Source: Candidatus Tenderia sp. (lineage in GTDB: Bacteria; Pseudomonadota; Gammaproteobacteria; Tenderiales; Tenderiaceae). Taken from it: DNA of 42,925 nt. Location: positions 1-42,925 of the forward strand of contig JANOSY010000075.1 in assembly GCA_031416075.1 (NCBI GenBank), read 5' to 3'. The notes below the pieces were generated by a model. That model saw only the letters and a program-made list of their open reading frames with translations, made no database searches and was not told where the DNA came from. Positions 1 through 3,328 of this stretch are shown piece after piece. Each line of letters starts with the position of its first letter. Positions within the stretch are counted from its first letter, which is position 1. The position numbers and the translations under genes were made by a program.

Positions 1-63
1 CTGTGATAATTCAGACAGTGAGGAGACTATGGTGAAGTGTTTGCGTTATCCAATCAATCTGTC

Positions 64-136
64 GAACCGCCGTGTACGGACCCGTACGCACGGTGGTGTG
101 GGAGGGGGAGGCCGTGAGGCTTTCCCCTATCCCGAT
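64..136 (+). mobile_element. Group II intron 3' end (domains V-VI), class IIC-like; rest of the intron, if present, lies upstream of the window
   Basis: GAACCGCCGTGTACGGACCCGTACGCACGGTGGTGTGGGAGG is the short domain V with the CGC triad typical of IIC. It is followed by domain VI GGGGAGGCC-GTGA-GGCTTTCCCCT and a ...ATCCCGAT terminus. Confidence 0.9.
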
Positions 137-778
137 TGGGCATAACAGGAGAATTTAATGGGATTTGCTATTTCTTGGGTTGCAGTGAAACAAAAAGAAA
201 TTCATCAAGTTCTGGAGCTTTTAAGTCTTGAACGAACTGGTGAAACAGAAGAATTTCCTGAATCACCAATTACCTGCATTTCTATTTCAAATGGGTGGTT
301 TGTTGTATTTGCTAATAAATACAACTCCCCTTTGGTGTCTGCTAAATCTTTAGAGGCTATTTCAAAAGACTGCATGGTTATATCGTGCCAAGTCGAAGAG
401 CATGTGATGGTTAGTTCGGCAACTTGTTACGCTAATGGTATTTTATCTTGGCACGTTGAACATGATGCTCAGGAAAATATGTACTACATCGCATCAAGCG
501 GAAATGTCCCACCTGAATTTAATGAAATTCTAAAGGCAGCAAAGAAAGAACAAGATGACGATGGCGGTGAAGATTCAGAGGTTGATTATATTCATGATGT
601 CCCGATTTTTCTTGCTCAAACAGTGACCTCATTTCGACATGATGAAAATATGACAGATGAAAACCTAAAGCCATTTGAGGTTTTAAAATTAATTCGTAGT
701 GGTTCAAAGCAATCTACTTTTGAAAAACCGTGGTGGAAGTTTTGGTAGGGTGCTATGCCCAACCCGGCATTCAAGCCG
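137..778 (+). mobile_element. Integron-type gene cassette with truncated attC
   Basis: Begins TGGGCATA (core site G/TTGGGCA, cut by the intron). Ends TATGCCCAAC (R'' GCCCAAC 757-763) - CCGGC - ATTCAAGC (L''-like). The two ends are reverse complements. The RBS lies right after the core, the ORF is AT-rich, and no right attC arm was found. Confidence 0.75.
158..748 (+). CDS. Hypothetical cassette protein, 196 aa, acidic, C-terminal KPWWKFW
   Basis: ORF with AGGAG RBS, AT-rich relative to the rest of the window; KPWWKFW-type tails are common on cassette and accessory proteins. Confidence 0.85.
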   Translation: MGFAISWVAVKQKEIHQVLELLSLERTGETEEFPESPITCISISNGWFVVFANKYNSPLVSAKSLEAISKDCMVISCQVEEHVMVSSATCYANGILSWHVEHDAQENMYYIASSGNVPPEFNEILKAAKKEQDDDGGEDSEVDYIHDVPIFLAQTVTSFRHDENMTDENLKPFEVLKLIRSGSKQSTFEKPWWKFW

Positions 779-809
779 GGTATCTATGGGCTCCTCCCGT
801 TTTGCAAGG

Positions 810-1010
810 AGAAGATTGAACTTTTGTCCTCAGGGTAAAGATTGCGTGTATCTATCCGGCCTCTACGTGAGCTATACGATTAGCTCGGGCCATAATGCAA
901 TACGCACGCTGGGTTCCATATAGGGTGTCGGCCTTATTGGCCATACCCGGCTTCGGAGTGTCCTGGCGTCGGTCTTACCTGTTGGGCATCGTTCGTTCTT
1001 CACCTTCGCA
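810..1010 (-). ncRNA. Putative bridge RNA / seekRNA of the IS1111 element (boundaries approximate)
   Basis: Two loops closed by GGCC/GGCC stems. 921-927 and 944-953 match the two halves of the reconstructed target; 849-855 and 893-901 match the two halves of the circle junction. Confidence 0.85.
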
Positions 1011-1091
1011 AGAGCCCGCCCCACGAAGTGCTTTGGGCGTCGTGGCGGGTCTAGTGTGTAACTCGCTTTATTTAAACGTAGCCTACTAATG

Positions 1092-2144
1092 TCAGCGGGT
1101 TGCGATTCCCTCTGCTTTGTTTATCCATTGTGCCTGGTAATGGCGTCCGTGGGCGAGCAGCGCCCACGCGACTCGTGCCAATTTGTTGGCTAAGGCCACG
1201 GCGGCAACGTTGAAGCCTTTGGCTTCTTTAAGTTTGGTCGCCCACTGGAGCAGGCGATCTTCTTTGCCCTCGGCGCAGCGCAATGCACTGCGTGCGCCGT
1301 GAATCAGTAAGGTGCGCAGGTAGCAGTCGCCTCGTTTGGAGATACCGAATAGCTGCTGCTTGCCGCCGCTGGAGTGTTCATGGGGCGTGAGCCCGATGTT
1401 GGCCGAGAAGCAACGCCCAGAGGGGAAGTGGTGAGGATCACCTATTGCGGCGATGAAAGCGGTAGAGTTTAGTGGGCCAAACCCTGGCATCTCCATCAGC
1501 CGTACCACTTGCTCATCCTGGCGGGAGAGTCGCTGGACGCGGATATCGTAAGCATTGATCCACTCATCTTGCAGGGTGAGTTGTGATTGCATTTCGGCAA
1601 AGATCTCCAACGCACCAGAGGATAGGCCGTGGTGTTCGCCGCTTAACACTGCTGTCAATCCTTTGCGTAACGCGGTAGCGCTGCATGGAAAACTCAAACC
1701 ATATTCACCCAGCAGACTGCGTATCTGCAGCATCAGCGCCGTGCGGTTTTCTACCAAGCGCTGTCGCACCCGGTGCAGCATCTGCACATCTTGCTGCGTT
1801 TCGCTGTTAATCGGAACATACAATGTCTCTGGTTCAGAACGCAGATCACAAATCGCCTTTGCATCACGGTAGTCATTCTTATTGCCTAACACCCGACGGC
1901 TGACACGTTGACCGGCAATCAGTTTAACCTCATGTCCAAGCTCGTTGAGTTTTCGCGCCCAATAATGGGCTGTAGCACACGCCTCAATGCCAACCTTGGC
2001 AATAGGTAGATTAGCAAAGAACTCCAACACTTGATCTCGTGACATCTTGCGCTTCAGCACTTCATTGCCTCGCTCATCTTTGCCTACGGCATAGAAAACG
2101 TTCTTGGCAATATCCAATCCAACGACGACTGCGTTATGTTTCAT
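1092..2144 (-). CDS. IS110-family DEDD recombinase/transposase (likely start MKHNAVVVGLD at 2144)
   Basis: GLDIAK, IEAC and KNDYRDA give the DEDD tetrad; HSSGGK catalytic-Ser motif; GDCYLRTLLIHGA and VALANKLAR motifs; uninterrupted ORF. Confidence 0.96.
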   Translation of the reverse strand: MKHNAVVVGLDIAKNVFYAVGKDERGNEVLKRKMSRDQVLEFFANLPIAKVGIEACATAHYWARKLNELGHEVKLIAGQRVSRRVLGNKNDYRDAKAICDLRSEPETLYVPINSETQQDVQMLHRVRQRLVENRTALMLQIRSLLGEYGLSFPCSATALRKGLTAVLSGEHHGLSSGALEIFAEMQSQLTLQDEWINAYDIRVQRLSRQDEQVVRLMEMPGFGPLNSTAFIAAIGDPHHFPSGRCFSANIGLTPHEHSSGGKQQLFGISKRGDCYLRTLLIHGARSALRCAEGKEDRLLQWATKLKEAKGFNVAAVALANKLARVAWALLAHGRHYQAQWINKAEGIATR

Positions 2145-2235
2145 ATCGGATTCCCTCTCTCTCGTTTGGCCGATGACCGACTCACCCGCTTGGCACACCA
2201 TGATGCCGTTTGAAGATGGGAGGAGTCCATTTCAT

Positions 2236-2255
2236 TAGGGTGCATTCCATGTACC
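2236..2255 (+). repeat. GTAG-type REP-like hairpin, split by the IS insertion
   Basis: The reconstructed empty site reads GTAG-GGTGCA-TTCCA-TGTACC. Only one copy is in the window, so repetitiveness is unproven. Confidence 0.5.
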
Positions 2256-2474
2256 ACTCCCCAAAACCATCGCTACTAGCTCATTTGGTGGTGAATCATC
2301 GAGTAGATCCATCATAAACAAGAAGGGGGAGCTACGTTATTTAGCGCATAGACTGCGCTCTGCCTGACTGGAAAAATGAATAACACCAGGCACAACTTCC
2401 CACAAAGGGCCGTAGAAACCAAGGCTATTGAACGGCAGTAGCCGCATAATGCTGGCGCAATTTTTAAGGGGCTT

Positions 2475-2504
2475 AAAACAGAAACAGGGGCCATTGGCCC
2501 CTGT
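2475..2504 (-). terminator. Intrinsic terminator of the PEP-CTERM gene
   Basis: ACAGGGGCCA/TGGCCCCTGT hairpin followed on the minus strand by TTCTGTTTT. Confidence 0.8.
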
Positions 2505-2521
2505 CTTTAACATCTGACTTC

Positions 2522-3328
2522 TTAAACCGCCAGCGCTGTCTGTTTTTTACGTCGGCTCAACCCAATGCCCATCAGCCCAAGGGCTAAAAGCATCACTGTT
2601 TCAGGTTCAGGGACTGTGGCATTGGAACCACCTTGGCTAAGTGACTGCACGTAACCTGTGCCGACCGGGGTGACGCTAATCTGGTTAAACGTGGCAATCA
2701 GCGAGCTTGTGTCCATAAATGAAACACTGAGTTGGTTAAAGGGGAACCTCAACAGTTCAGCCTCTCCCGGCAGTGCATGGCTCAATAAAGCGGTAGGTGT
2801 GGAATAGAGCAAGGTGGTCCAGAAGTTAAACCCCAGTGATGTCACACCACCACCAAGACTCGTGATGTCGATGTTGGCATTTAATGTGGTCAGGCTGCCG
2901 ACAAACATATCTTCCCAGGCGGTTCCACGACGGGTGAGGCGGCGATTGTTATCTACGATGACATCGGCATTGCCATTGGCAGCAACGTTGATGCCGTTAC
3001 CATTAACACTGAACCCATCCAACGCGCCGTTATAGGTCATGCGATCATTAAACCAGCTGATTGTTGAGGGTGAGTTGGTCTCGATGCGAAACTCACCGCT
3101 CAACTTATCCCCCTGATTAAACACAACAACCGTGCCATTATTATTGATTGAGGTGGTGTTGTTAATCGTTGCGGTGTAGTCATAACGCAGATACGTAGCA
3201 GATGCCGCCGTGGGCAGCAGCGCCCCGGCCAGGGTCATAATCGCCAGAACTGTGGCAGCAAACCCTTTTTTCCTGACAGATACATTTGAAGCGGTGGTGG
3301 AGACACTTTTCCAAACAACTGAACTCAT
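2522..3328 (-). CDS. PEP-CTERM sorting domain protein
   Basis: Signal peptide ending ASA; C-terminus VPEPETVMLLALGLMGIGLSRRKK; GGGAG RBS. Confidence 0.93.
   Translation of the reverse strand: MSSVVWKSVSTTASNVSVRKKGFAATVLAIMTLAGALLPTAASATYLRYDYTATINNTTSINNNGTVVVFNQGDKLSGEFRIETNSPSTISWFNDRMTYNGALDGFSVNGNGINVAANGNADVIVDNNRRLTRRGTAWEDMFVGSLTTLNANIDITSLGGGVTSLGFNFWTTLLYSTPTALLSHALPGEAELLRFPFNQLSVSFMDTSSLIATFNQISVTPVGTGYVQSLSQGGSNATVPEPETVMLLALGLMGIGLSRRKKQTALAV

Follow-up and report, generated by a model that had tools for sequence, protein, structure and literature searches.

Near the left end of the stretch of DNA analysed here, contig JANOSY010000075.1 of Candidatus Tenderia sp. (42,925 nt, hereafter the window), positions 783–2237 of the minus strand carry what we read as an intact insertion sequence (IS) of the IS1111 group, whose DEDD recombinase would be directed by an RNA encoded in the non-coding end, which lies downstream of its gene. 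Judging from the sequence, we put the probability of this reading at roughly 88%. The anatomy of the element, a conserved fold in the non-coding end, covariation of the guides both with the flanking DNA and with the IS ends, and a consistent target are all observed.

The boundaries of the element follow the convention of Siddiquee et al. (PMC11187229), as described there. On the plus strand the left junction reads AAGCCGGG-TA(781–782)-TCTATGG and the right junction CATTTCAT-TA(2236–2237)-GGGTGC. The TA at 2236–2237 forms the first two bases of the left extension of the IS, and only TA is common to both junctions. These junctions therefore give an empty target AAGCCGGG-TA-GGGTGC and joined ends ATTTCAT-TA-TCTAT, reproducing both sequences put forward in the initial annotation of this DNA. 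The right subterminal inverted repeat agrees with the left at 12 of 13 positions in the window copy; those on contigs C40, C64 and C65 of the same genome reach 13 of 13. The non-coding DNA downstream of the gene amounts to 309 nt (1091 to 783), against 90 nt upstream (2237 to 2148). With its 13-bp subterminal repeats, extensions of 7 and 3 bp and a longer downstream non-coding end, the element has the anatomy of the IS1111 group, for which subterminal repeats usually of 11–13 bp, a 7-bp left and a 3-bp right extension and a GL-P----S(T)G motif in the transposase are listed in PMC11187229.

The product of the gene, 351 residues long (369 if an alternative in-frame upstream ATG at 2201 is used), matches Pfam PF01548 with 64.5 bits and PF02371 with 78.1 bits, and the NCBIfam model NF033542, "IS110 family RNA-guided transposase", with 311.7 bits against a cut-off of 140. 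Together with the IS1111 anatomy these matches uphold its earlier assignment as an IS1111/IS110 recombinase. Residues D12, E55, D92 and D95, which we take to be the DEDD residues, are invariant in 16 relatives. The sequence GLTPHEHSSG at residues 252–261 fits the GL-P----S(T)G pattern, and G252, L253, P255 and G261 are invariant in the relatives compared. In the PDB, the C-terminal part of the protein matches two transposases, that of IS621 (E = 4e-06) and that of ISCro4 (E = 5.5e-06). Relatives of the recombinase number in the thousands, and the best 120 span 92% to 55% identity; the nearest are metagenomic proteins, and a protein of Pseudomonas aeruginosa (P0084) is 57% identical.

The initial annotation had placed four short motifs in the non-coding end, and a script check found each of them on the plus strand where they had been reported: TAGGGTG at 921–927, TACCCGGCTT at 944–953, TATCTAT at 849–855 and TAATGCAAT at 893–901. 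Read from the minus strand, these give two putative target guides, T1 and T2, and two putative donor guides, D1 and D2 (Table 1). In the window all four end in UA, so that each includes the TA core as had been claimed. T1 matches the target at 10 of 10 positions, with base 943 lengthening the match to 11, and T2 matches its target half at 7 of 7. In gene orientation the match to the top strand lies 5′ of the match to the bottom strand, as described for IS1111 seekRNAs and opposite to the order in IS110 (PMC11187229); for the joined ends, D1 and D2 are laid out in the same way. When the non-coding end (window 803–1091) was shuffled 3000 times with its dinucleotides preserved, 2 shuffles reproduced the 10-mer match, 311 and 388 the two 7-mer matches, 131 the 9-mer match with one mismatch, and none all four jointly. 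The short matches are thus weak one by one, and the case rests on the whole set and, above all, on the comparative evidence.

For this comparison, one genome per species was scanned and the best 80 of the 595 relatives returned (42–59% identity) were kept as loci. The 70 with at least 330 nt after the stop codon could be tested for the non-coding end, and nhmmer matched it in all 70, from about window position 1011 to the end of the IS; the left ends are alignable too. Guides were compared with flanks and ends in 57 loci, the window and 56 others in which both flanks were present and the ends could be anchored cleanly (14 loci were left out), using 5000 permutations of flanks or ends among the loci as control. 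The hypervariable stretches between the conserved helices coincide with the positions at which the target guides had been placed. The longest run shared by T1 and its own right flank averages 6.65 (3.62 when permuted) and that shared by T2 and its own left flank 5.98 (3.25 when permuted), and in neither case was any permutation as high. In fixed register T2 scores 5.91 of 8 against 2.52. Guides therefore fit their own flanks far better than those of other loci, the covariation that the initial annotation had proposed looking for in related copies.

A second IS1111-type element in the same genome, on contig C45 at about 106012–107420 (locus L007), is decayed, its gene broken and its longest frame 264 aa. 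Its RNA region looks intact, and its guides are unlike those of the window and fit its own, different palindromic target. An ORF of 143 aa adjoins this element; by eye it is presumably an IS200-type TnpA.

The interior of the window IS is assembled only at the window locus in its own genome, in which four contig ends break inside the IS: C40, C64 and C65 give further junctions of the left-of-window kind and C17 a further one of the right-of-window kind. Four left and two right junctions are therefore available from this genome, 97–100% identical, and at least four copies of the IS are present. Metagenome contigs were also used from run X1, which may be the source sample, and from X3, X4 and X5, which belong to three other studies; several junctions were read from such contigs, in which chimerism at repeats is possible. 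The depth of the IS unitig in X1, 114 compared with 23–29 for the flank contigs, fits four or five copies, though this is only a hint. Another genome of the genus (G002) holds a full copy, 98% identical and with the same ends, and IS-spanning contigs in X3, X4 and X5 cover 774/780–2242/2243, with no difference listed across 783–1010, the region of the guides.

Seven distinct flanks, each preceding TA, were seen on the T1 side (plus strand): AAGCCGGG, TAGCCGGG (in two different contexts), CAGCCGGG, TAGCCCTG, CAGCCATG and AGCCAATG. They match T1 at 10, 9, 9, 9, 7, 7 and 5 of 10 positions, and in three of these natural insertions the bases two and three positions past the core are mismatched to T1. 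On the T2 side six flanks were seen, all of which begin TA-GGGTG, matching T2 at 7 of 7, and have three distinct continuations; the X4 and X5 right flanks are identical to those of C17 and G002 and are therefore not independent. All of the junctions found are AGCC..G-TA-GGGTG-type sites without added bases. The initial annotation had held that copies at unrelated sites would speak against it, and every junction found shares the one type of target.

The exact 15-mer target has no uninterrupted match in the genome, and the looser AGCCNNGTAGGGTG is found uninterrupted at four sites in it, each beside a short palindrome, so that the target is an arm of a repeat resembling repeated palindromic (REP) elements. 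The target specified by the RNA is about 15 bases long, AAGCCGGG-TA-GGGTG on the plus strand, and in the host it forms one arm of a REP-like element; several other members of the family likewise have such a repeat arm as their target. In the host DNA to the left of the insertion, another GGTAGGGTGC lies at 745–754, 30 bases before the target (compare 2236–2245); the IS therefore sits within a cluster of the same repeat arm.

The window copy holds an insert of 28 nt (1011–1038), directly upstream of the conserved RNA, that both the G002 copy and the contigs of X3, X4 and X5 carrying the IS lack. The 24-nt core of this insert occurs in 25 copies in the genome (at most 4 mismatches) and also in other genera of the family; the insert is a small REP-like mobile repeat, foreign to the ancestral IS. 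All of the IS depth in X1 carries it, and the IS must therefore have spread after acquiring it. In a distant search of a plasmid collection, the 10 listed of 94 records cover only 6–7% of the IS at 72–79% identity; no plasmid record covers 80% or more of the IS, and therefore no named close copy was found.

The fold of the non-coding end was determined from an alignment of 41 sequences, the window and 40 of the loci, taken from 43 that cover both ends of the core after two near-duplicates and one row short at its 5′ end had been dropped. The RNAalifold consensus has 32 pairs in nine helices. Double changes occur in 24 of the 32 pairs, the signature of selection on a folded single strand. By an independent count, 95.3% of cells are paired, compared with 72.0% in shuffled alignments (none of 500 as high) and 30–46% when the partners were slid by 1–3 columns. 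In helices P3 and P4, which enclose the target loop, all 11 pairs show double changes, with 97.0%, 90.2% and 100% of cells paired; in the window copy itself two of the four inner P3 pairs are mismatched. The two GGCC stems reported initially are both real, each being 100% paired in the 41 sequences and containing double changes. The TGCGT/ACGCA helix reported to close the donor loop did not hold up as a conserved feature: it can form in the window copy, but only 59.5% of its cells are paired across the alignment, its two inner G–C pairs being invariant and the other three positions mostly unpaired. GCGU (909–906) pairs instead with ACGC (969–966) within P3, where all four pairs covary.

Single-sequence minimum free energy (MFE) folds were rejected as evidence of structure. 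In them the guide bases pair with each other, and their z-scores are −2.91 for the 309-nt end and −1.70 for 810–1010, 13 of 200 shuffles being as good as the latter. The suggestion that 810–1010 is a folded RNA is hence supported by the consensus scaffold and not by the MFE fold, which is not distinctive. A scan of window 1–3000 with Rfam 15 (E ≤ 1) found no bridge-RNA family, its one hit being part of a group II intron, and IS1111 bridge RNAs may have no model in Rfam. Partial nhmmer matches to the RNA region also occur away from any full IS in the same genome, at C31:46544–46641 (E = 7.7e-10) and C77:4575–4679 (E = 3.3e-07); these may be solo fragments or remnants.

Unlike the target guides, the donor guides show only moderate variation between loci, because the IS ends vary less than the flanks. 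D2 matches its own right end at 6.88 of 7 positions (5.38 when permuted, none of 5000 as high): five positions match in 57 of 57 loci and the two core positions in 56 and 51, and D2 follows every variant of the right end. D1 matches its own left end at 6.65 of 9 (6.06 when permuted, again none of 5000 as high). Of the D1 bases, the four facing left-end positions −5 to −2 match in 53–57 of the 57 loci and follow the rare changes there, the three at the 5′ end (opposite +2 to −1) match in 49, 32 and 38, and the last two in 12 and 25. The last six bases of D1 (898 to 893) pair with 991 to 986 to form the long-range helix P1, which is 94.3% paired with double changes in three of its six pairs, though these bases follow each element's left end as well. 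Over the 59 loci in which P1 was counted, the penultimate base of D1 pairs with its P1 partner in all 59 and complements the left end in 12, and the last base does so in 46 and 24, respectively. The left-end guide thus doubles as a helix strand, in agreement with a remark in PMC11208160 that in many IS1111 orthologues the nucleotides binding the donor are located in a multi-loop. Taken together, the covariation points to a donor loop with guides for both IS ends, clearly for D2 and, in D1, for the bases opposite −5 to −2.

These same features could be explained if only the target module acts as a guide, in the form of a short seekRNA, and the protein recognises the IS ends through the subterminal repeats; D1 would then be no more than a strand of P1 and D2 a conserved sequence. 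The small margin of D1 over its permuted control and the P1 pairing of its last two bases are what would be expected, and the main RNAs co-purified with IS1111 transposases are 82–96 nt long, only target matches being described in them in the account of PMC11187229. A sequence that was simply conserved would not, however, follow every right-end variant as D2 does, nor would a mere helix strand track the rare left-end changes opposite −5 to −2, and we regard this explanation as distinctly improbable. A guide RNA with both a target and a donor module remains our preferred reading. The upstream strand of P1 reads UGAUGG in most relatives and is identical to the IS left end at 4–6 of 6 positions in 54 of the 59 loci. 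It is conceivable, if rather unlikely, that P1 holds the left-end donor guide in check, in which case the donor DNA would need to displace an internal mimic of itself and the RNA would have a built-in switch controlling whether the circle is captured.

Joining of the IS ends (783–807 with 2231–2237) would create a sigma-70-like promoter, TTGCAA-17-GATAAT, that agrees with the consensus at 9 of 12 positions and has its −10 box across the joint. Across the joined ends of 61 loci the −10 hexamer is TATAAT in 20, TACAAT in 19, TATGAT in 9, GATAAT in 6 and another sequence in 7. Such a junction promoter (Pjunc) is a known feature of the family (PMC12288879). By analogy with the family as described in PMC11208160, PMC11187229 and PMC12288879, the element would excise as a circle, in which the promoter created by the joined ends would drive the gene and the RNA behind it. 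Transcription would pass through the gene into the non-coding end, and an RNA from about 1011 to 800 of the minus strand would be processed and bound by the recombinase. T1 would then pair with one strand of the right target half and T2 with the opposite strand of the left half; a single RNA would bring circle junction and target into synapsis, and strands would be exchanged at TA.

The window element is one of 6 of the 57 loci with TA throughout. In 36 of the 57 the left junction has TA or CA, whereas the right junction and guides T1, T2 and D2 have TG or CG. The A of the left-junction dinucleotide comes from the left extension of the IS, and with it the −10 box of the junction promoter is complete. 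Expression and recombination might then pull on the same base, the second of the core.

A number of observations weigh against an RNA-guided element with two modules. The bridge RNA or seekRNA is a prediction from the DNA sequence; the 7-mer matches taken singly are reached by 10–13% of shuffles; and the loci are kin, so that the permutation counts overstate their independence. T1 fares poorly in fixed register (4.05 of 10 and 3.70 of 11, where permuted flanks give 3.22 and 2.76), since register is not kept in the alignment of the loop, and its strength shows only in the register-free measure. Of the seven T1-side flanks, three match T1 at only 5–7 of 10 positions. D1 mismatches the left end at one base in the window, exceeds its permuted control only slightly, and provides a helix strand with its last six bases throughout the family. 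A sigma-70 promoter scan of 700–2300 (the integrated copy) gave no sites where 1.3 were expected, so that no promoter can be proposed for the integrated copy. The contigs of X1, X3, X4 and X5 contain no circle junction, though contigs cannot show rare forms. They also contain no joint across the IS corresponding to an empty site at the window locus; the sole joint in them skips 1211–1297 and is on a single low-depth contig.

Sequence identity alone cannot separate a function as DNA from one as RNA, and the internal copies of target and ends might act as recombinase binding sites or decoys; the helices around the motifs nevertheless keep their pairing through double changes (24 of 32 pairs) and for the family the use of such RNAs has been established by experiment (PMC11187229, PMC11208160, as reported there), which makes a role as DNA very improbable indeed. 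That the element is a dead relic, its matches leftovers without present function, could be argued from the one mismatch in the right subterminal repeat and the 28-nt foreign insert, but is hardly credible given the open 351-aa frame with the invariant residues of the family, the intact junction promoter, the several near-identical copies at different sites and the spread in X1 after the insert was gained.

Table 1. Features of the IS1111-group element and its predicted guide RNA in the window (an arrow gives the direction of reading; pairs of ranges are the two strands of a helix)
Feature	Position	Strand	Basis or remark
Whole IS, 1,455 bp	783–2237	−	Junction reading and same ends in 98% identical copy
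Left extension TAATGAA, 7 bp	2237→2231	−	Junction sequence
Right extension AGA, 3 bp	785→783	−	Junction sequence
Target TA dinucleotide (core)	781–782	.	Junction sequence
Left subterminal inverted repeat ATGGACTCCTCCC (gene orientation), 13 bp	2218–2230	−	Sequence
Right subterminal inverted repeat	786–798	−	Comparison with left repeat
Recombinase gene, 351 aa	1092–2147	−	ORF
28-nt insert of genome-wide small repeat	1011–1038	−	Just upstream of conserved RNA
Structured core of predicted bridge/seekRNA	830–1010	−	nhmmer homology and consensus fold
T1, 5′ target guide AAGCCGGGUA	953→944	−	Complementary to top strand (gene orientation) of core and right target half
T2, 3′ target guide CACCCUA	927→921	−	Identical to top strand of left target half and core; pairs with bottom strand
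D1, left-end donor guide AUUGCAUUA	901→893	−	Complementary (8/9) to IS left end TAATGAAAT
D2, right-end donor guide AUAGAUA	855→849	−	Identical to IS right end and TA
Helix P1	986–991 / 893–898	−	Consensus fold
Helix P2	977–979 / 971–973	−	Consensus fold
Helix P3	962–969 / 906–913	−	Consensus fold; encloses target loop with P4
Helix P4	955–957 / 915–917	−	Consensus fold; encloses target loop with P3
Helix P5	939–942 / 930–933	−	GGCC-loop-GGCC of the initial annotation; 100% paired
Helix P6	888–891 / 858–861	−	Second GGCC pair; 100% paired
Helix P7	882–885 / 870–873	−	Consensus fold; 85.8% paired
Hairpin GGCC AAUAA GGCC between T1 and T2	930–942	−	3/3 main pairs with double changes
Donor-loop hairpin, outer GGCC/GGCC (P6) and inner helix (P7)	858–891	−	Double changes in 2/4 and 4/4 pairs
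TTGCAA, −35-like hexamer	802–807	−	Promoter only upon joining of IS ends (783–807 and 2231–2237)

Two features of the neighbouring DNA may be mentioned. The 3′ end of a group II intron lies at window 65–136 on the plus strand (Rfam Intron_gpII, full model 1–77, 45.2 bits, E = 5.4e-07), truncated by the start of the contig and just upstream of an ORF at 158–748 that has no Pfam match. On the minus strand, 2522–3328 encodes a protein of 268 aa ending in PEPETVMLLALGLMGIGLSRRKK, a tail that we take to be PEP-CTERM-like. This gene is upstream of the IS and co-directional with the recombinase gene, and read-through into the IS is therefore possible.

With this element an uncultured bacterium of freshwater sediment contributes an IS1111-type bridge RNA that can be read cleanly, its guides, target, ends, core and junction promoter all being legible in the sequence. 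Some 57–70 relatives show which positions of the RNA belong to the scaffold and which can be programmed. Systems of the IS1111 type have been explored far less than those of the IS621 type. As leads for recombinase engineering, there are the self-consistent palindromic TA core, the natural insertions at sites with 1–3 mismatches to one guide, and possibly a helix that sequesters a guide. The IS also accounts for several contig breaks of its own genome, in which REP-like repeats of the host are being colonised.

SeekRNAs have been shown experimentally for four IS1111 members (PMC11187229), and bridge RNAs have been predicted for 93.0% of the IS1111 elements in ISfinder (PMC11208160). With ISEc11, ISPa11 and ISKpn4/ISPst6, as described in PMC11187229, the window IS has in common a DEDD transposase with the GL-P----S(T)G motif, subterminal repeats, 7- and 3-bp extensions, a downstream non-coding end and matches to opposite strands that overlap at the insertion point. 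ISPa11, like the window IS, also targets a REP element. Compared with those descriptions, the target and guides of the window IS are different, and its donor-reading module lies outside the short seekRNA reported in that paper.

The bridge RNA of IS621 (PMC11208160; structures 8wt6–8wt9) follows the same logic as far as that account goes: one RNA has target- and donor-binding modules, each module reads both strands around a 2-base core, and a promoter forms at the circle junction, as it would in the window IS. The IS621 recombinase likewise has a RuvC-like domain and a serine-bearing C-terminal domain. In the window IS, unlike IS621, the RNA lies on the downstream and not the upstream side of the gene, the two guides of a loop come in the opposite order, the element has long subterminal repeats, and the donor guide lies in a multi-branch fold and not in a simple internal loop. 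The two recombinases can be aligned only over residues 217–340 of that in the window (E = 4e-06). The core also differs, being TA as read from the sequence here and CT in IS621.

Predicted IS1111 bridge RNAs of the ISfinder entries ISCARN28, ISAzs32 and ISPa11 are also among the closest known systems (Extended Data Fig. 10 of PMC11208160). The sequestration of a guide by P1 and the A/G discrepancy at the core are the only parts that might be new, and the supplementary figures of PMC11187229 and PMC11208160 may already cover them. In particular, the multi-branch fold, and perhaps P1, may be found in Supplementary Figs 6–7 of the former and in Extended Data Fig. 10 and Supplementary Table 5 of the latter. 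The initial annotation had proposed a candidate new orthologue. The kind of system is in print (PMC11208160, as described there), the NCBI family is already named "RNA-guided" and no close copy was found in the plasmid collection; the element is therefore a new orthologue, of a known system and not of a new mechanism.

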